Positions 4,404 to 11,503 of a stretch of DNA of 64,000 bases are shown here, one piece after another. The DNA is from Candidatus Omnitrophota bacterium. Its GTDB lineage: Bacteria; Omnitrophota; Gorgyraeia; 2-01-FULL-45-10. Under the pieces are notes generated by a model, which saw nothing but the letters and a program-made list of their open reading frames with translations, did not search any database and was not told the DNA's origin. The stretch lies in the NCBI GenBank assembly GCA_041648975.1, contig JBAZNZ010000006.1, positions 5,723 through 69,722 of the forward strand, given 5' to 3'. The stretch's first letter is position 1; each line of letters begins with the position of its first letter. The position numbers and the translations under genes are program-made.

Positions 4404-4653
4404 AGTTATTTAAGTCGAAATAGTACAGATAGGAATTGAAGCGAATACAATAAATATTTATATAAATGCGAAAATTAAATAAATATAAAATCAAATCATT
4501 GTATTGGAATAAGGATTATACAGCTATACGCATTCACGCGTTAATCTAAAGAAGGCAAGAATATACTGGCATAAAATAACAGGAGTGCCGCTTGCTCAAT
4601 TTACTAAGCCATATGTACGAAAAGGAAATCCGAATCTAAGCAATAGAAAATTG

Positions 4654-4682
4654 CTTTACGGGCTTGTCCATATTCGCTATAA
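4654..4682 (+). promoter_or_regulatory. putative sigma70-type promoter for tRNA-Tyr (TTTACG-17-TATAAT)
   Basis: A perfect -10 TATAAT at 4677-4682, with a weak -35 TTTACG 17 nt upstream, lies about 60 nt before the tRNA-Tyr 5' end. Confidence 0.3.
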
Positions 4683-4743
4683 TGACAAAAAGCTGTTGGA
4701 AACGATACATAATTGGATTGATATATATGTAGATCAGTTTAGT

Positions 4744-5039
4744 GGTGAGGTACCATAGCGGCCAAATGGACCAGACTGTGGTGAACGCAGCGTCATGAAG
4801 AAATTCATGATGGAAAAGCGGGTGAATTCAGGGGAGCCCTTAATAGCGAAACATTAAGGGGAATCCTGAGCCAAGCCTAGAACCGTAATGGTTCTTTGAA
4901 GGTGCAGAGACTAAGCGCCCGCCGCCTAAAGTTCGCAAGAACCAAGGTGATGAGATAGTCCAAGCCTCGAGGTAACTTGAGGGCCCTTGAAATCTGGCGG
5001 CGCAAGCCTTCGATGGTTCGAATCCATCCCTCACCACCA
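4744..5039 (+). tRNA. tRNA-Tyr (anticodon GTA), type II, interrupted by a 210-nt group I intron in the anticodon loop (exons 4744..4779 and 4990..5039)
   Basis: Exon 1 is ggtgagg-ta-ccat-AGCGGCCAAA-tgg-a-ccaga-ctgt. The D loop AGCGGCCAAA matches E. coli tRNA-Tyr. Exon 2 is aaa-tctgg-cggcgcaagccttc (long variable arm, GGC/GCC stem)-gatgg-ttcgaat-ccatc-cctcacc-a-cca. The spliced anticodon loop CUGUAAA is the tRNA-Tyr loop, and the acceptor stem is perfectly paired. Confidence 0.8.
4780..4989 (+). ncRNA. group I self-splicing intron (IC3-like, ORF-less) inside tRNA-Tyr
   Basis: Core elements are recognisable. P-like GAATTCAGGGGAGCC, Q-like GGAATCCTGAGCCAAGCC, R-like GGTGCAGAGACTAAG, S-like GATGAGATAGTCCAAG. 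These match the cyanobacterial/plastid tRNA-Leu(UAA) intron core. The 5' splice site follows U, the intron ends in G, and there is no internal ORF. Confidence 0.7.
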
Positions 5040-5184
5040 ACTTAACAGATTTATTGCATAAGTTCTATAGTGTCAGTGAGTTATGCGACCTGGAGATTTT
5101 AGACTTTAACAAAAAGCCATTAAAATTGGTTCCGGTAAAAATATTTTCTGTCTAATATGGAAAGAGGTCTACAACGAATTAACT

Positions 5185-5264
5185 CTTGAAAATTATAGAT
5201 TCAGAAAAAGGATCTGTATGTAAATGAGACAAAGCGCTGGCTGGTATGGCCAGCGCTTTTAATT
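5185..5264 (+). repeat. about 80-nt intergenic module, copy 1 (roughly 75% identical to 6070..6147), ending in a terminator-like hairpin
   Basis: CTTGAAAATTATAGATTCAGAAAAAGGATCTGTATGTAAATGAGACAAAGCGCTGGCTGGTATGGCCAGCGCTTTT aligns with the second copy. Confidence 0.5.
5233..5264 (+). terminator. rho-independent terminator-like hairpin (AGCGCTGGC-TGGTAT-GCCAGCGCT followed by TTTTAATTT)
   Basis: Perfect 9-bp GC-rich stem followed by a T-rich tract. Lies downstream of tRNA-Tyr. Confidence 0.4.
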
Positions 5265-5279
5265 TGGGGGTAATGAGGT

Positions 5280-5528
5280 ATGAATGCTGACGATTATATA
5301 GGGAAAGGCTCGGAACATATAGCAAAGGCTATTGCAGGGGTTGCGAAAGAGCCTCCGTCATGGCAACAATTATTACTTCAGGAGTATTTGAAGGTGGAAT
5401 TAAACAGAGAACTAATAGAGAGCCAAAGGAAGCATCAGGACGATTCAATTAAGCAGATGAAGCACCTTGTTTATGCAACGTGGGGATTAGTCGTGGCAAC
5501 GTTGTTATTGGTGCTAATAAAGCATTAA
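5280..5528 (+). CDS. hypothetical small protein with C-terminal TM anchor (82 aa)
   Basis: ORF with C-terminal hydrophobic helix WGLVVATLLLVLI. No recognisable motif. Confidence 0.35.
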   Translation: MNADDYIGKGSEHIAKAIAGVAKEPPSWQQLLLQEYLKVELNRELIESQRKHQDDSIKQMKHLVYATWGLVVATLLLVLIKH

Positions 5529-5539
5529 AAGGAGAGGCT

Positions 5540-5932
5540 ATGGGATATTTGATAGGTTTTTATCATAACGCGTGGGGATTGGTTCCATTTGCTTTAGTGG
5601 CATCTTTAGTGTTGTTTTTATTCAGAAGGTGTGGCTTCATCAAATATTTCTCTGTTTTATGGTTGGTTCTAATTGGATACGAATATTCACAAGTCTATGG
5701 TGGGAATGTCTATGGAGCTATGATACAGAGTGGAATGGCAAGGACTTATTCTAAAGTGGTGGGTTATCTTGTGGGGTATCTGTATTTTTCTATCGTTGCT
5801 TCTGTTCCATTTATTTTTATGGATGTAATAAAGAGTAAACTAGCTAAAAAACTATATCTTTTGATGTTCGTTATATTTATGTGGGTAACGCCATTTATAT
5901 GTGAATTTATCGGAGATATTGCGAAAAGATAA
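5540..5932 (+). CDS. hypothetical integral membrane protein (about 4 TM, 130 aa)
   Basis: ATG at 5540 is preceded by AAGGAGAGG. Four hydrophobic segments. The longer 5480 start overlaps the previous ORF. Confidence 0.45.
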   Translation: MGYLIGFYHNAWGLVPFALVASLVLFLFRRCGFIKYFSVLWLVLIGYEYSQVYGGNVYGAMIQSGMARTYSKVVGYLVGYLYFSIVASVPFIFMDVIKSKLAKKLYLLMFVIFMWVTPFICEFIGDIAKR

Positions 5933-6069
5933 GTAGGTAGTAGAGAATGAGGAATTATGGGACGCGTCAAAAAAGGACACGCAGTTTGAGTGGAATGCCC
6001 CCAAAGTGACACGTCCCTAATAGCTGCCTTTGCTGCGCAATGCAGAAAGAGGTGTGAAACGAACAAAAA

Positions 6070-6147
6070 CTTGAAGATTTTAGATATAGAAAACGGATCC
6101 GTGTAAATTGGGAGAAGCGCTGGCTATTGTATAGTCTGCGCTTTTTT
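6070..6147 (+). repeat. about 80-nt intergenic module, copy 2 (paralogue of 5185..5264), ending in a terminator-like hairpin
   Basis: CTTGAAGATTTTAGATATAGAAAACGGATCCGTGTAAATTGGGAGAAGCGCTGGCTATTGTATAGTCTGCGCTTTTTT. Confidence 0.5.
6116..6147 (+). terminator. rho-independent terminator (AGCGC...GCGCT followed by TTTTTT) after the 5540..5932 gene
   Basis: Stem agcgc/gcgct with an internal loop, followed by six T. Confidence 0.45.
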
Positions 6148-6182
6148 GCTTGAACGCGTATTTTGTGAGTCATGGCAAGGAG

Positions 6183-6611
6183 ATGGTAATTATGATGAAA
6201 ATTTTAGCGTATATATTCTTCGCATATCTTTACATATCAGTTGGCGTATTTATTTACTTCTTGATTCGTGATAAACGAGGGAAAGTGCCTTATAATCCTA
6301 ATAACCTAAATGGCTTGTCAGCGATTTTTTCGCTTGGAACACTTATTATGCTTTGGTTAATTTTAAGCATAGGCATAGAAAAGTTTTTACTTGCACCCAT
6401 ACCTTATTCTTGGGGGTGGCACGAAGGAGAAGGAGTTAAGAATTCATTAAGATTCAATTTAGCTTGGATGATTGCTCTTGCAATATCAGTTTATATATTT
6501 TGGATTATAGGAGAGCTTCAAAGGAAAGAAAAGGTTATAAAAGAGTTGCAAGCTCGGTATCAAAAATTAAAGGGGACAGATAAAGGGGAGTGCAAAAATG
6601 GGCATGGCTAA
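6183..6611 (+). CDS. hypothetical membrane protein (3 TM, C-terminal coiled-coil/K-rich tail)
   Basis: ATG at 6183 follows AAGGAG. Hydrophobic helices ILAYIFFAYLYISVGVFIYFLI, LSAIFSLGTLIMLWLILSIGI and LAWMIALAISVYIFWIIG. Overlaps the next gene. Confidence 0.45.
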   Translation: MVIMMKILAYIFFAYLYISVGVFIYFLIRDKRGKVPYNPNNLNGLSAIFSLGTLIMLWLILSIGIEKFLLAPIPYSWGWHEGEGVKNSLRFNLAWMIALAISVYIFWIIGELQRKEKVIKELQARYQKLKGTDKGECKNGHG

Positions 6612-7143
6612 TCTTTCAGACATAAAATCAGAGCCGATTCTTCTCAAAGATAAGGAGTGGAGCTTGATTGATGGCGAGCTTTGTCTTGTAACGGAATTTT
6701 TCCCAATGATGGGGAGTAGCGTTAAGGATGGGGTTGTAATATCGCCCAGCACCTCCGCCCCTTACGCAAAAATTACTATTAGATGTAAAAAAATACCCAC
6801 TGAAATAACCGCCTTTATAACACATTCCATTGACTTTGCTAACCTTTGGGATGCCTTTAGGTATAGAGAAACACATAATAAGACCGATGAGATACTTATT
6901 TATTGGTCAACGAAGCATTATAATAGTGTCATTGCAAAGATAATATCCTCGGTTATGCTAACTATCCTCGGTGGCACGTCTCTGCCGAAAATCCTTATTA
7001 TGCTTCGTCCTAACGGTGCTTATGAAAAAAGCGGGAGTGATTCAAGATTGCCCCACGATATAAATGCAAATGTTTTTATATATGGCTCATTACCTATTAA
7101 GTGTTGGATACCTGATATTATGAATGAGGCAGTTAAACATTAA
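6598..7143 (+). CDS. hypothetical soluble protein (181 aa)
   Basis: The start overlaps the upstream gene end, suggesting translational coupling. No known motif recognised. Confidence 0.45.
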   Translation: MGMANLSDIKSEPILLKDKEWSLIDGELCLVTEFFPMMGSSVKDGVVISPSTSAPYAKITIRCKKIPTEITAFITHSIDFANLWDAFRYRETHNKTDEILIYWSTKHYNSVIAKIISSVMLTILGGTSLPKILIMLRPNGAYEKSGSDSRLPHDINANVFIYGSLPIKCWIPDIMNEAVKH

Positions 7144-7166
7144 AAGCTAAATAGAGAGGTGCGAAA

Positions 7167-7532
7167 ATGTCAGAGCAAAATCCTGCAACAATAATAAAAA
7201 ACGCAGTAGAAGACCTTGCGGGGAAAATAATATTTTTATCAGGCGAAGTAGCAACTTTTAAGCAAGCTCTGTGCGACCTCGTAATCAAGGCGAATGATTC
7301 GAGCAATAAAATGCTTAAGGCTTCAAAGATGTATTTTGCAGGAAGTATTATTCTGTCAGCAGTTATAGCCTTTAGTGCGTTAGTTCCTAAGTGGGGTTTT
7401 GTATCCACTCAAGGCGGTTATACATTAAAGTATAATCAGGTTACAGGGAAAGCTGTTGTGTATAAATGTAATTATTCAACCGAAGGGAAGTATGTATACC
7501 AAGAATTCCCTGTCGAAAAATATAAGCCTTAA
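7167..7532 (+). CDS. hypothetical protein with one central TM helix (121 aa)
   Basis: Follows the previous ORF after 23 nt. Central helix is AGSIILSAVIAFSALV. Third gene of an apparent operon. Confidence 0.4.
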   Translation: MSEQNPATIIKNAVEDLAGKIIFLSGEVATFKQALCDLVIKANDSSNKMLKASKMYFAGSIILSAVIAFSALVPKWGFVSTQGGYTLKYNQVTGKAVVYKCNYSTEGKYVYQEFPVEKYKP

Positions 7533-7640
7533 GATTTCGTTGTTAAAGAAATAAATGAACAATCAAGCCATAGCATATTGCGGATGCTTTACCGATATGC
7601 AGGAAATGTTGATTCTTGACAGCATACCTTTTTAGGTGTC

Positions 7641-7681
7641 TTGACACTACAGGTGTAATATGCTACACTTATCGGTGTAAT
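7641..7681 (+). promoter_or_regulatory. sigma70 promoter (TTGACA-17-TACACT) with flanking GGTGTAAT direct repeats (putative operator)
   Basis: Consensus -35 TTGACA at 7641-7646 and -10 TACACT at 7664-7669. GGTGTAAT occurs at 7652-7659 and again at 7674-7681, straddling the -10 element. The site lies just upstream of the wHTH-nucleotidyltransferase gene. Confidence 0.45.
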
Positions 7682-7694
7682 GTGAGGAACGCAT

Positions 7695-8240
7695 ATGATC
7701 CCGCTTAAATCGACAATAACTAAAAAGATACTAAATTACTTTTTTGTCAATCCACAAGAAAGCTTATATGTAAATGAGCTGTCCCGGAAGCTATTTCTGG
7801 ATAAAAGGAACCTGGTAAAAAAGATCAAGGAGCTAGAGGCTGAAGGGATATTGGTTCATGAGACGAGAGGCAACCTTAAGTTATATGCTATAAATGCTAG
7901 CTATCCTTTATATAAAGAATTTCGTAAAATTATCATGACAACGGTAGGAGTCGAGGAACAACTGAGGCATCTTTTAAAAGGAGTTACTGGAGTTAAAGAA
8001 GCGTATATTTATGGCTCATATGCGAAAAATGCTATGGATACTCATAGCGATATCGACGTTCTTATTGTAGGTAGTGTAGGTGTTGTAACCGTACAAAAGC
8101 ACATAAGCAAGCTACAGAGAGAAATAGATAGGGAGATAAGCGTTACTGTTATGACCAAAAAGGACTTTACCCGGCGCGTAAAGGCAAAAGATCCCTTTAT
8201 TAGTGGTGTGCTCAAACAAAAGCACATAAAGATAATATGA
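7695..8240 (+). CDS. winged-HTH DNA-binding domain fused to a minimal nucleotidyltransferase (MNT/Pol-beta fold), MntA/AbiEii-like
   Basis: The N-terminus (ILNYFFVNPQESLYVNELSRKLFLDKRNLVKKIKELEAEGIL) looks like an ArsR/MarR-type wHTH. The C-terminus carries the NTase motif GSYAKNAMDTHSDIDVLIVG. Confidence 0.65.
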   Translation: MIPLKSTITKKILNYFFVNPQESLYVNELSRKLFLDKRNLVKKIKELEAEGILVHETRGNLKLYAINASYPLYKEFRKIIMTTVGVEEQLRHLLKGVTGVKEAYIYGSYAKNAMDTHSDIDVLIVGSVGVVTVQKHISKLQREIDREISVTVMTKKDFTRRVKAKDPFISGVLKQKHIKII

Positions 8241-8644
8241 TGAAATTCGAAGATAAATATTTCAAAGATTTTGTATTTACAAAGGATCAGGTCAAAAAGA
8301 ATTTCGATAATGCCTTAAAAGATATTAAGATTGCGCGTCAAGATGCCATCCCGGATGTCAAATTCACATACTCTTATGATGCACTTATTAAAGGTGGTAT
8401 TGCTTTGATAAGCAGCTACAACAAAAAAGTCAAAAGTGCGCCAGGGCATCATGTGAAGATTATAGAGATGGTTGCGAAAATATTAAATGACGACACAATT
8501 GAAGCTGTGGGCGGCGCTATGCGCTCAAAGCGCAATGTGGATTTCTACGATGGCGGGGTGGAGGTTACCGAAAAAGAGGCGTGCGAATATTTGGGTTTCG
8601 TAGACAGTATTTTGAAAAAAATTGAAAAAGCCTTAAATATCTGA
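8237..8644 (+). CDS. hypothetical protein, putative partner of the upstream nucleotidyltransferase (possible toxin or antitoxin)
   Basis: ATGA overlap with the NTase gene suggests a coupled two-gene module. No canonical HEPN Rx4-6H motif was seen, so its family is undetermined. Confidence 0.4.
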   Translation: MMKFEDKYFKDFVFTKDQVKKNFDNALKDIKIARQDAIPDVKFTYSYDALIKGGIALISSYNKKVKSAPGHHVKIIEMVAKILNDDTIEAVGGAMRSKRNVDFYDGGVEVTEKEACEYLGFVDSILKKIEKALNI

Positions 8645-8657
8645 TAATATGCTTGCG

Positions 8658-8705
8658 GGTGAGGAAGTTTCTATATGTTAAGTTCGAGGCGAACCCTCAC
8701 CACCA
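8658..8705 (+). repeat. tRNA-Tyr-derived acceptor/T-arm-like fragment (GGTGAGG...GTTCGAGGCGAACCCTCACCACCA), putative att remnant
   Basis: Its 5' GGTGAGG and 3' CCCTCACC-ACCA reproduce the tRNA-Tyr acceptor stem, and it ends in a T-arm-like CGAAC. It is homologous to 11459..11503. Confidence 0.5.
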
Positions 8706-8884
8706 GTAATATCTACTCAGTTCGACTGAGTATTATAATACCCGCGTTGAAGATGGATTCGCAAAAAGGGTTTTTAAGGGAAAAAAGAATTTTTTCCCTT
8801 ATCGGCGCACGAGAACATCTATGCGGAAGAAAGGATAACATTAAAAGGAAAACATCAGGTTTTCCTTTTAAGGAGCCCATAGCC

Positions 8885-8916
8885 TAAGTTCAGGGCGACG
8901 AATCCGTCCCTCACAA
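8885..8916 (+). repeat. degenerate copy of the tRNA-Tyr 3' end (CGAATCCGTCCCTCAC against tRNA CGAATCCATCCCTCAC)
   Basis: One mismatch over 16 nt to the tRNA-Tyr T-arm/acceptor region. The upstream CCCATAGCC resembles the tRNA-Tyr D-arm CCATAGCGG. Confidence 0.4.
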
Positions 8917-9015
8917 TAGTTAAATGAGTGTGCTATGTGATAATTTTAGACCTAATAATACCCGTAAATTAGCATCCGCAGTTGTGGGGTGCTAATTTTA
9001 TTTTAAGGGGGTAAT

Positions 9016-9609
9016 GTGGAAGAAAAAAATCTAAACGAGACAATTAAAGAAGCGGTTACTGCAGAAAGCCGTAAAGACAGTTGGTTAGAAACGCTTGGCA
9101 TATCATGGGAAGATGTTATTAAGGCACTTGAACAATCGGAGAAAGATGAGAAATATTTAACGGAATTAGCTAAAAAAACAGCATCTAATAAATCGAGACA
9201 CTTTATAGTTGTGCGCAGTATAGTATTAGACATTCATTTGCTTTTGGATTATACCGTAAGCTCTGTCATTGGGTTTATGCTTGTCTTTCGGGGTGGACAT
9301 CATGGAAAGGAATATAATGGGCAAGAGGTTCAGGAAATTATAGATTTTATACATGACAAGGTTGACTATGCAAAGAGGGTGCATATCATAGAGAGGCTGA
9401 AGATATTTAGCAAAGACGCTATCAAAATATTATATGCAGTTAATAATCTTCGAGTTGCTTTTGCTCACGGTAAAAAGAACGTAGAGTACAATTACTTCAA
9501 TAAATCGGTATTTGATAAGAATACTATTGATAGACTACAGGCAGATAAAAACAAGGTATTGGGAGAATACTCGGAGTTTCTGAAGAATAGCACAGATAAG
9601 AAAACATAA
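9016..9609 (+). CDS. hypothetical protein with C-terminal Rx4H motif (possible HEPN/Abi-like)
   Basis: GTG start follows AGGGGG by 6 nt. The C-terminal LRVAFAHG matches the HEPN catalytic Rx4-6H pattern. Confidence 0.4.
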   Translation: MEEKNLNETIKEAVTAESRKDSWLETLGISWEDVIKALEQSEKDEKYLTELAKKTASNKSRHFIVVRSIVLDIHLLLDYTVSSVIGFMLVFRGGHHGKEYNGQEVQEIIDFIHDKVDYAKRVHIIERLKIFSKDAIKILYAVNNLRVAFAHGKKNVEYNYFNKSVFDKNTIDRLQADKNKVLGEYSEFLKNSTDKKT

Positions 9610-9618
9610 GGAGAAGTA

Positions 9619-9646
9619 AGTAGCTGACGTTTAAACGTCAACTACT
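9619..9646. repeat. near-perfect 28-nt palindrome centred on GTTTAAAC
   Basis: AGTAGCTGACGTTTAAACGTCAACTACT has one mismatch. It lies just after the 9016..9609 stop codon. It may be a terminator (no T-tract) or a protein-binding site. Confidence 0.3.
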
Positions 9647-9688
9647 TTGTGGGTAACTAGAGTATTGGGATGAATTAAGAATAAAATA

Positions 9689-10228
9689 ATGAAAATTAAG
9701 ATTAGTAAAATTCAAGCCGCAGAAGCGCAGCTAAATGAAGCTATCTTTTTATTTTTTGATGAGGCTAATCCTGTAGTTATTGAAACATTGATAGGGGCTG
9801 TTATAGGTATATTGCGACCTATAGGTAAAAAATATGGCATTCAAGCCCCTTCCCATGATTCGGATAAAATAAAGCCAGAATATAAGAAGCTATGGATAGA
9901 CACTCTTCATAAAGCTCAGAATTTTTTTAAACACGCTGATAATGATTCAGATGATATTTTATCTTACGAAAATGATATATTGCCTTTTTGCATTGTTGAA
10001 GCATGTCATTTGTTCAGATATGTCGCATCCGATAAATGCTTGAAATATCGACAGTCTCAGCCTGCCCTACTGTTTGAAATATGGTTTTGGCTGAAATATC
10101 CCCATTTATTAAAAGACTTAGCTGAGACTGAGAAATTCTTGCAGGCTGTAGGTATGCCAAAAAGTTTTAGTGTTGATGATTTCGAAGTGCTGAAAATGTT
10201 GGCAGATAAGTATCGGATAAAATTATAG
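9689..10228 (+). CDS. hypothetical protein (179 aa)
   Basis: ORF with its ATG following GGGATGAATTAAGAATAAAATA. No recognised motif. Confidence 0.4.
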   Translation: MKIKISKIQAAEAQLNEAIFLFFDEANPVVIETLIGAVIGILRPIGKKYGIQAPSHDSDKIKPEYKKLWIDTLHKAQNFFKHADNDSDDILSYENDILPFCIVEACHLFRYVASDKCLKYRQSQPALLFEIWFWLKYPHLLKDLAETEKFLQAVGMPKSFSVDDFEVLKMLADKYRIKL

Positions 10229-10238
10229 TTTTCTATAA

Positions 10239-10847
10239 GTGGGGGGCATGATGGATACGATATTTTTTATTTCTATAGGTGTGGTTGGCATCATTAGTGT
10301 GCTCGTAGGATTTTTGCCGCAAGAAAAATTAAGCAGGCATCTTAAAATATTATTTCTTGTAATCACGGCAGCGTGTCTTATGTTTCAAGGGTTTTACGGG
10401 TTAAAAGAGAAGAGATCCTCGGATTATAAAAAATACAGAGATGACTTGTACCAAAACGATATGCTAACGGGGCAAAGTGAGATTTCGGATGGTATGAAGG
10501 AACTGAAAGAAAAAAGTAAAAAAGGTGTTTTAACAGAGGCCGAATATGGACTGTATATTTCCAATTATTTAGAAAGCATAGATCTTAGCTTAAAGCGCTT
10601 GGGTTGGAAACATAATAGAGAGCGGATCATTGATTATTATGAAGAAATTGCTAAGATTCCAGATTATTTTACTTTTCAAGAATGGAGTGCTGCCGAGGCA
10701 TTTATATATAACTCGATGATGGATGAGATCAACAATAATTTCAGTGCTAGAAATATGTACGATAGTAGCGCAAGAACAAAAGTGCTGGAGAGTTTTGAGC
10801 GCGAACGCGGAAGGCTAATTACAGCAAAAGAAAGAGAGTTTAGTTAA
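10239..10847 (+). CDS. hypothetical membrane protein with SHOCT-like motif
   Basis: Two N-terminal TM helices. KELKEKSKKGVLTEAEYGLYISNYL resembles the SHOCT oligomerisation motif (G-[LIV]-[LI]-T-x-E-E-Y). Confidence 0.4.
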   Translation: MGGMMDTIFFISIGVVGIISVLVGFLPQEKLSRHLKILFLVITAACLMFQGFYGLKEKRSSDYKKYRDDLYQNDMLTGQSEISDGMKELKEKSKKGVLTEAEYGLYISNYLESIDLSLKRLGWKHNRERIIDYYEEIAKIPDYFTFQEWSAAEAFIYNSMMDEINNNFSARNMYDSSARTKVLESFERERGRLITAKEREFS

Positions 10848-10921
10848 AACAAGGGAATGAGAAGGGTGGCTCTATTAAATGTTAGATATGTTTGTTCCCG
10901 TAAAATATATTTACAATTATA

Positions 10922-10950
10922 TTGACAAAAATATGTATATCGAGTATACT
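10922..10950 (+). promoter_or_regulatory. sigma70 promoter (TTGACA-17-TATACT) for brnT-brnA, overlapping palindrome GTATATCGAGTATAC
   Basis: Consensus -35 with a near-consensus -10 ending 5 nt before the ATG, implying a leaderless or short-leader mRNA. The palindrome over the -10 is consistent with an autorepressor operator. Confidence 0.4.
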
Positions 10951-10955
10951 TAATT

Positions 10956-11237
10956 ATGCTCGAAGAACATAACAGTTTTGTGTGGGATCCGAGGAAAGAA
11001 AGAATAAATGTAATAAAGCACCGGATCGATTTTACTACGGCAGCCTATGCATTCGACGATCCTAAAAGAAAGATATTTGCCGACCTTTGGCATAGTGAGC
11101 ACGAACAAAGATATTTTTGTATAGGAAGGATAAATAATAAGATAGTAACCGTGCGCTTTACTCGTAGGGGTAACAAGATTAGGATAATTGGCGCGGGTTA
11201 CTGGAGAAAGGGGAGAAAATACTATGAAAAAGCATAA
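10956..11237 (+). CDS. brnT: BrnT-like type II toxin (DUF497 ribonuclease)
   Basis: FVWDPRKERINVIKHRIDFTTAAYAFDDP...IIGAGYWR matches the BrnT/DUF497 signature (F-x-WD-x-x-K-x-x-x-N-x-x-KHG-[IV]-x-F). Confidence 0.7.
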   Translation: MLEEHNSFVWDPRKERINVIKHRIDFTTAAYAFDDPKRKIFADLWHSEHEQRYFCIGRINNKIVTVRFTRRGNKIRIIGAGYWRKGRKYYEKA

Positions 11238-11454
11238 AATCGATTACGATATGCCTATAGGTGAACTAAAAAGAATAGACGACTTTTTACCGCCTCCCAA
11301 GGACCTGGCTATGCCGGAACATACCGTTATGGTTACTTTGAGGCTTAGCGAGAAGAGTGTTGAATTCTTCAAAGATCAGGCTAAAAAGTATCATACCAAG
11401 TACCAGAAGATGCTTAGATTTTTGGTGGATAAGTACGCGGAGAAGTATTCATAA
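11224..11454 (+). CDS. brnA: BrnA-like antitoxin (RHH/CopG family)
   Basis: Begins at MKKHKIDYDMPIGELKRIDDF and overlaps the brnT 3' end. Size and position match the BrnA antitoxin. The upstream extension of the ORF from 11188 is unlikely to be translated. Confidence 0.6.
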   Translation: MKKHKIDYDMPIGELKRIDDFLPPPKDLAMPEHTVMVTLRLSEKSVEFFKDQAKKYHTKYQKMLRFLVDKYAEKYS

Positions 11455-11458
11455 AAAG

Positions 11459-11503
11459 TGAGGGAATTCTATCTGTTAAGTCCAGATCGAACCCTCACCA
11501 CCA
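11459..11503 (+). repeat. tRNA-Tyr-derived acceptor/T-arm-like fragment, right-end att-like repeat (GTGAGGG...GATCGAACCCTCACCACCA + TTTTTT)
   Basis: About 80% identical to 8658..8705. Ends in CCCTCACC-ACCA as tRNA-Tyr does. The AT-rich island ends here. Confidence 0.5.

Follow-up and report, generated by a model that had tools for sequence, protein, structure and literature searches.

The question raised by this locus is whether three short genes lying in a row on the + strand of the 64,000-nucleotide (nt) stretch of Candidatus Omnitrophota DNA analysed here (the window) form one functional system. An earlier note, made from the letters alone, had taken them for a candidate novel three-component system. 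Our comparisons point instead to a mosaic of three independently acquired cargo genes, located in the first of two tandem genomic islets, and not to a conserved three-component system; we give this joint reading a probability of about 0.55. The open reading frames (ORFs) of the trio are as follows, with transmembrane (TM) segments called from hydropathy:

6192..6611, + strand: ORF1, 139 amino acids (aa), three TM segments (7-25, 44-62, 88-106), a conserved PYSWGWH loop and a charged, coiled-coil-like C-terminal tail
6598..7143, + strand: ORF2, 181 aa, N-terminal beta subdomain and C-terminal alpha/beta subdomain
7167..7532, + strand: ORF3, 121 aa, bitopic membrane protein with one central TM segment (55-73)

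The description of the trio in the earlier note, as a 3-TM protein, a 181-aa soluble protein and a 1-TM protein tightly packed on the + strand, agrees with the ORFs and their hydropathy, including the single central TM helix of ORF3. Its statement that no motif can be assigned to the trio also held, as no match was found in Pfam, NCBIfam, PADLOC, PHROGs or the PDB. What did not hold is the unit. ORF2 homologs were followed at 28 independent loci (four metagenome contigs and 24 species-representative genomes), and among all ORFs of these loci neither BLASTP nor phmmer detected a relative of ORF1 or ORF3; the three ORF3-homolog loci are likewise without ORF1 and ORF2. The trio is thus not conserved as a unit in any of the 28 + 3 other loci, and the proposal of a three-component system, for which the earlier note had itself named a lack of conservation as a unit as a refutation, is not sustained. 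The trio proteins are identical to NCBI WC592_02600, 02605 and 02610 from a Candidatus Omnitrophota metagenome-assembled genome (MAG), and three further metagenome contigs contain the same stretch. The strain variant L042 has one single-nucleotide polymorphism as its sole difference and is uninformative. No paralogs of the trio were found elsewhere in the window.

Each gene of the trio has its own sparse, separate phylogenetic distribution. The ORF1 and ORF3 families are tiny, with one and two diverged homologs, respectively, among 5.8 billion proteins. The sole diverged homolog of ORF1 (P0012) shares 54% identity with it in BLASTP, over 95% of the query (56% in a pairwise alignment), and the PYSWGWH motif of the loop and a second motif, GELQRKE.VIKELQ.RYQKLKG, are conserved between the two; ORF1 had no match in Pfam, NCBIfam, PADLOC or PHROGs. 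P0012 is followed by genes of 70 aa and 61+ aa on a 979-nt ENA contig from sample ERZ27297570. The two diverged homologs of ORF3 (63% and 53% identity) cover its N-terminal 54 aa and the TM segment, and the C-terminal tail is not conserved. One of them is located in another Omnitrophica MAG, after a transfer RNA (tRNA) gene for Glu, a NarE-like gene and a 72-aa TM gene, and the other follows the 3' end of a gene resembling hsdS of type I restriction-modification systems. In the former setting (L013, 5012-6265; Omnitrophica CG1_02_46_14, MNVS01000071), a set of three genes lies directly 3' of the tRNA-Glu. The first encodes a 152-aa NarE-like protein (27.2 bits, cutoff 27), a possible ADP-ribosyltransferase, the second the 72-aa TM protein and the last the ORF3 homolog P0010; this set may be another tRNA-linked islet.

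ORF2 is, judging from an exhaustive profile search, a member of a widespread undescribed single-domain family found in many bacterial phyla, including the candidate phyla radiation, and in some archaea. The search retrieved 285 representative clusters (defined at 50% identity) at E<=1e-3, 177 of them at <=1e-10. Six homologs are close relatives (49-57% identity) and many more are more distant, and members are present in 25 GTDB species from Planctomycetota, Patescibacteria, Chloroflexota, Gammaproteobacteria, Bacteroidota, Zixibacteria, Omnitrophota, Aenigmatarchaeota and Promethearchaeota. In an alignment of 37 sequences, residues D79, P130 and P172 are invariant and W21, Y56, F80, E98 and W103 nearly so, and most of the proteins end right after a W-x-P-x-V/I-M motif. 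Because the conserved set contains few polar residues (one invariant Asp and one near-invariant Glu) and many aromatics and prolines, it is suggestive of an adaptor or binding domain and not of an obvious hydrolase. N-terminal extensions are present in 20 of 156 members (∼13%); the domain is always C-terminal. Seven of the extensions contain TM segments, which fall into at least three unrelated types, another is a CpXC zinc ribbon, and the remainder are soluble and uncharacterised.

The AlphaFold model of ORF2 is of high confidence (predicted local distance difference test, pLDDT, 92.5; predicted template modelling score, pTM, 0.86). A hydrophobic stretch at residues 111-129 is buried in this model as a helix plus a strand and is partly missing in most family members, and because of this ORF2 is most likely soluble. 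Remote-homology searches and structure prediction had both been suggested in the earlier note; ORF2 was modelled confidently, and no PDB relative was found, either by Foldseek with the model or by a sequence search of the PDB with two ORF2 profiles. When 37 diverse members were scanned against Pfam-A 2025 and NCBIfam 20.0 (E<=1), no family was common to more than three of them and all matches were far below the cutoffs; PHROGs contained no model covering the 37 members, and no relatives were matched in phage (50,697 genomes, INPHARED), IMG/VR, BFVD or plasmid collections. The interest of the locus lies mainly in this family, which is outside Pfam and NCBIfam and combines a confident model with the lack of a Foldseek match in the PDB; determining its structure and curating it as a family would be inexpensive.

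The neighbourhoods of the ORF2 homologs are in line with independent acquisition. Family members are usually solitary and lie in variable regions among unrelated neighbours. All-versus-all clustering and phmmer searches of these neighbours revealed no recurrent family, and when 85 flanking proteins were scanned with Pfam and PADLOC, the matches were mixed and no family had more than two members; among them were ABC transporters, HTH_3, GmrSD_C, Zeta toxin, PD-(D/E)XK, Hypoth_Ymh, DUF2971, radical SAM and housekeeping enzymes. Small helix-turn-helix (HTH) genes are located directly 5' of three homologs (L010, L027 and L037). A tRNA or transfer-messenger RNA (tmRNA) gene lies within ∼3 kb at 9 of the 28 loci versus 2-5 expected (binomial p ∼0.007), a rough statistic whose expectation was built from generous tRNA densities. 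In a Zixiibacteriota MAG (L028, 4461-5372), the ORF2-family gene begins 31 nt beyond the 3' end of the tmRNA gene, a place where islands classically integrate. In Roizmanbacteria GW2011_GWC2_34_23 (L019), the homolog is found next to a tRNA-Lys in a 4.1-kb segment between 290-nt direct repeats (6044-6332 and 10463-10736; 92-99% identity) that correspond to the 5' part of a HAD-like gene; also within the segment are three single-TM proteins, paralogous to one another, and three small genes on the minus strand, and the whole resembles an insertion that duplicated its target. At nine other ORF2-homolog loci, no att-type repeats of tRNA ends of at least 12 nt were found. This context fits ORF2 as cargo that occurs alone in small integrative or variable regions.

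The trio lies in a low-GC (guanine plus cytosine) stretch at ∼5000-11500 (GC 0.33-0.42), and ordinary core genes with a GC content of 0.49-0.54 are located upstream of ∼4400. The borders of this stretch and the toxin-antitoxin (TA) type genes within it are the following:

4744..5039, + strand: tRNA gene with a group I intron (5' exon ∼4744-4779, intron ∼4780-4989, 3' exon 4990-5039), left border (attL side) of the islet
7695-8240, + strand: winged HTH-nucleotidyltransferase, 181 aa (Pfam NTP_transf_2 and Polbeta; PADLOC PDC-M05A, 6e-44)
8237-8644, + strand: small HEPN-like partner, 135 aa (PADLOC PDC-M05B, 2e-9)
8669..8705, + strand: att-like repeat ending in the tRNA 3'-end core CCCTCACCACCA, right end of the first islet
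10956-11454: BrnT/BrnA pair of the second islet
11467..11503, + strand: second att-like repeat, right end of the second islet, directly 3' of BrnT/BrnA

The islet begins at the 3' end of the tRNA gene, at 5039. The last 12 nt of the tRNA, CCCTCACCACCA, are exactly repeated at 8694-8705 and 11492-11503, and a degenerate copy of the repeat is present at 8896-8919. The exact copies are contained in 37-nt arms (8669-8705 and 11467-11503) that are 84% identical to each other, which points to small, related integrative islets, at least two of them in tandem: 5040-8705 (3.7 kb) and 8706-11503 (2.8 kb). Both clear att-like repeats are located directly 3' of a TA-type pair, one such pair closing each islet. 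In the first islet, the two ends are inverted copies of each other, with ACTTAACAG on the left at 5040 and a CTGTTAAGT-like sequence on the right (8673-8684). No recombinase family was found by Pfam and NCBIfam among the 10 of 12 islet proteins (5040-11503) that were scanned, the other two being BrnT and BrnA, and the islets look either decayed or mobilised in trans. The earlier view of the region as a tRNA-linked island beside TA modules is well founded in the GC drop, the tRNA border, the 3'-end repeats and the TA pairs. The region resembles tRNA-linked integrative islands in its border at a tRNA 3' end, in the repeats of this end at the distal ends, in its lower GC content, in its TA modules (MNT/HEPN-like and BrnT/BrnA) and in its hypothetical cargo on one strand. 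Unlike such islands, it has no detectable integrase or excisionase in 5040-11503, its islets are very small, and the host tRNA contains a group I intron.

This intron was detected by Rfam RF00028 at 4768-4982 (86.4 bits, E 5.8e-21). ARAGORN missed the gene in the unspliced sequence, and after in-silico splicing (after U and after G) it reported an 86-nt class II tRNA-Tyr(GUA), which is most likely the identity of the tRNA. Bacterial tRNA group I introns are known from Leu(UAA), fMet, Ile(CAU) and Arg(CCU) genes; to our knowledge, Tyr(GUA) would be an unusual host of a group I intron in Omnitrophota.

Between the tRNA and the trio there is a second gene set, and each of the two sets is headed by a copy of the same leader:

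5142..5263, + strand: leader copy 1, ∼90 nt conserved, terminator-like hairpin 5231-5259 and T-run, 17 nt before the start codon at 5280
5280..5528, + strand: 82-aa protein, soluble at the N-terminus and with a TM segment at the C-terminus by hydropathy, no homologs in the libraries
5540..5932, + strand: 130-aa multi-pass membrane protein, three hydropathy peaks at the threshold used (10-28, 76-94, 107-125)
6026..6149, + strand: leader copy 2, same conserved blocks, terminator-like hairpin and T-run, 43 nt before the ORF1 start

The earlier note had described a leader of about 80 nt common to the trio and the 5280/5540 pair; the duplication is real, and the length is corrected to ∼120 nt. The copies are ∼75% identical (nhmmer E 1e-35 to 1e-37), and a GC-rich hairpin with a T-run closes each of them shortly 5' of a ribosome-binding site. 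The leader appears to be islet-specific: nhmmer found no further copy in the window or in 41 fetched loci, and exact-pattern scans of JGI metagenomes and IMG/VR returned zero matches. Only the terminal hairpin is common to the predicted folds of both copies (z = -0.6 for copy 2), no Rfam family matches at the leader, and neither a conserved leader peptide nor a convincing sigma-70 promoter could be derived from it. The module may be a promoter plus attenuator, a small RNA or a terminator with a downstream promoter. Paralogy of the two leader-headed gene sets (the 82-aa protein with ORF3 and the 130-aa protein with ORF1) was considered and rejected, BLASTP and hhalign both being negative.

Within the trio, ORF2 starts 14 nt before the end of ORF1, ORF3 starts 23 nt after ORF2, ribosome-binding sites are present, and no terminator-like sites were found. 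The open frame of ORF1 extends from 6150 to 6611. The earlier note had placed the gene at 6183-6611; the ORF and its end stand, and for the start 6192 (or 6195) is preferred over the ATG at 6183, which abuts the AAGGAG at 6177-6182, because the later start has better spacing, is used by public gene callers and aligns with the N-terminus of P0012. All three ORFs are real protein-coding genes, because each has diverged homologs and because ORF2 and ORF3 are under purifying selection. In codon alignments of ORF2 with four homologs, nonsynonymous divergence (dN) is 0.30-0.42 and synonymous divergence (dS) is at least 2 or saturated, and the identity at third codon positions is 0.35-0.46 versus 0.71-0.80 at second positions. 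ORF3 has the same pattern. Taken together, the codon alignments give a dN of 0.29-0.49 with dS at least 2 or saturated, and identity is far lower at third than at first and second codon positions. The codon-usage periodicity that the earlier note had mentioned is significant, as codon-position composition bias, for ORF2 and ORF3 and is not significant for the very hydrophobic ORF1 when taken alone (chi-square p = 0.47).

If the trio is mosaic islet cargo, its three genes are probably co-transcribed from the duplicated islet-specific leader, and ORF1 and ORF2 would be translationally coupled through their 14-nt overlap. ORF1, with a topology predicted to be N-out/C-in by the positive-inside rule and a lysine/arginine-rich C-terminal tail of 33 aa, may act as a separate anchor that keeps the ORF2 domain on the cytoplasmic side of the membrane. 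This idea is based on the overlap with ORF2 and on the fusion of the ORF2 domain to N-terminal multi-TM regions in ∼4-5% of family members (at least seven). By the 'Rosetta stone' logic that relates single-domain membrane-anchored proteins to split genes, the locus resembles a split version in that the gene directly upstream encodes a 3-TM protein and its stop overlaps the ORF2 start; it differs in that ORF1 is not detectably homologous to the fused TM regions and that most members are anchorless. We regard the anchor role as a weak proposal, and it is the sole positive functional suggestion that we defend. ORF3 would be an unrelated small bitopic membrane protein riding along. The most plausible class of biological role is mobile-element conflict or maintenance; if the ORF2 family has such a role, the repertoire would gain a new domain. 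As a system, the trio is ordinary, being hypothetical cargo of a small, decayed genomic islet in an uncultivated bacterium.

Several observations weigh against the mosaic reading or its anchor part. The tight packing, the ORF1/ORF2 overlap and the single leader have the look of a functional operon, so that a joint function of the three genes is conceivable in this genome. A similar TM/ORF2/TM layout is present in a gammaproteobacterial MAG (L020, 121-1488), where an ORF2 homolog is preceded by a protein of 92 aa, whose TM segment is C-terminal, and followed by one of 187 aa, whose TM segment is central, with gaps of 4 and 19 nt; the flanking proteins of this set have no sequence similarity to ORF1 or ORF3. 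A disrupted ORF2-like gene could be present among the two genes downstream of P0012, the sole place where a link between ORF1 and ORF2 could be hidden. The statistic on the nearness of ORF2 homologs to tRNA genes is rough. Finally, comparison of ORF1 with the TM regions of the fusion proteins (P0033) by BLASTP and hhalign detected no similarity, which bears on the anchor. A much broader version of the anchor idea would make the ORF2 domain, with a fold new to solved structures, the centre of a novel type of mobile-element conflict module (defence or counter-defence) that acts at the membrane via variable TM anchors, with ORF1-ORF2, with or without ORF3, as a split, membrane-tethered version carried on tRNA/tmRNA-targeting islets across bacteria and archaea; we consider this unlikely.

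Among the alternatives to the mosaic reading, a new three-component anti-phage or abortive-infection system, in which ORF2 would be a soluble sensor or effector and ORF1 and ORF3 would disrupt the membrane on infection, is improbable. It would suit the compact operon behind a common leader, the islet with its TA and defence-candidate modules (PDC-M05A/B and BrnT/BrnA), the analogous layout at L020, the hsdS neighbour of one ORF3 homolog and the defence-type genes among the ORF2-family neighbours (GmrSD_C, Zeta toxin, PD-(D/E)XK, Hypoth_Ymh and radical SAM). However, the three families do not occur together in any of the 28 + 3 other loci, most ORF2 homologs are solitary among unrelated neighbours, and the ORF1 and ORF3 families are tiny, with one and two diverged homologs. 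In PADLOC-DB 2.0, no family was found for ORF1, ORF2 or ORF3 at E<=1, and the 37 ORF2-family members gave only scattered single matches at E>=0.01. A compact module of the sort that the earlier note had in mind does exist in the islet, namely the PADLOC candidate PDC-M05 (nucleotidyltransferase plus HEPN-like protein), encoded directly downstream of the trio on the same strand. Unlike the trio, whose proteins match no PADLOC model, it is a separate two-gene unit (7695-8644) with its own promoter-like site, a TTGACA-17-TACACT with an upstream TG at 7641-7669.

Just as doubtful is stabilisation of the islet by a toxin-immunity or addiction pair, formed by ORF2 and ORF3 or by ORF1 and ORF2, with ORF2 as a new toxin or immunity domain and a small membrane protein as its partner. 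The location of an ORF3 homolog after a NarE-like ADP-ribosyltransferase gene, barely above its cutoff, and a small TM gene would be in agreement with such a pair, as would the closure of each islet by another TA pair and the small HTH genes directly 5' of three ORF2 homologs. It is opposed by the lack of a conserved small neighbour at most ORF2 homologs, by the few conserved polar residues of the family and by the lack of similarity of the trio to known toxin or antitoxin families; type II TA domains of Pfam and NCBIfam were found only in the neighbouring MNT/HEPN-like and BrnT/BrnA pairs and in none of the trio proteins.

A remnant phage lysis cassette, with ORF1 as holin, ORF2 as lytic enzyme and ORF3 as membrane accessory in the lambda S-R-Rz order, is very unlikely. 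The gene order is that of the lambda cassette of holin, endolysin and spanin (a 3-TM protein with a charged tail, a soluble protein of ∼180 aa and a membrane-anchored protein, with the first two genes overlapping), and ORF1 has the general look of a class I holin, being small with three TM segments, a predicted N-out/C-in topology and a charged C-terminal tail. This signature of three TM segments and a lysine/arginine-rich tail is generic, and ORF1 matched no holin family in Pfam or PHROGs. Against the cassette, ORF2 resembles no muralytic or other known domain or solved structure, the phage collections and PHROGs contain no relatives, ORF2 homologs are solitary in non-phage contexts of cellular genomes, the TM segment of ORF3 is central and not N-terminal as in i-spanins, and the islet contains no other phage genes.

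That the ORFs are spurious and the region non-coding, for which only the insignificant codon-position bias of ORF1 alone would speak, is hardly conceivable and is refuted by the diverged homologs of all three proteins, the purifying selection and composition periodicity of ORF2 and ORF3, the ribosome-binding sites and the confidently predicted ORF2 fold.

Two minor features of the region complete the description. The second islet encodes, between 9016 and 10847, proteins of 197, 179 and 202 aa without library matches; the 197-aa protein contains an RVAFAH (Rx4H) motif, and the 202-aa protein has two N-terminal TM segments. Upstream of the islets, a 57-aa ORF (4585-4758) lies in the AT-rich spacer between a tRNA-Thr and the intron-containing tRNA, and extends into the beginning of the 5' exon of the latter; this ORF may be spurious or a gene fragment.

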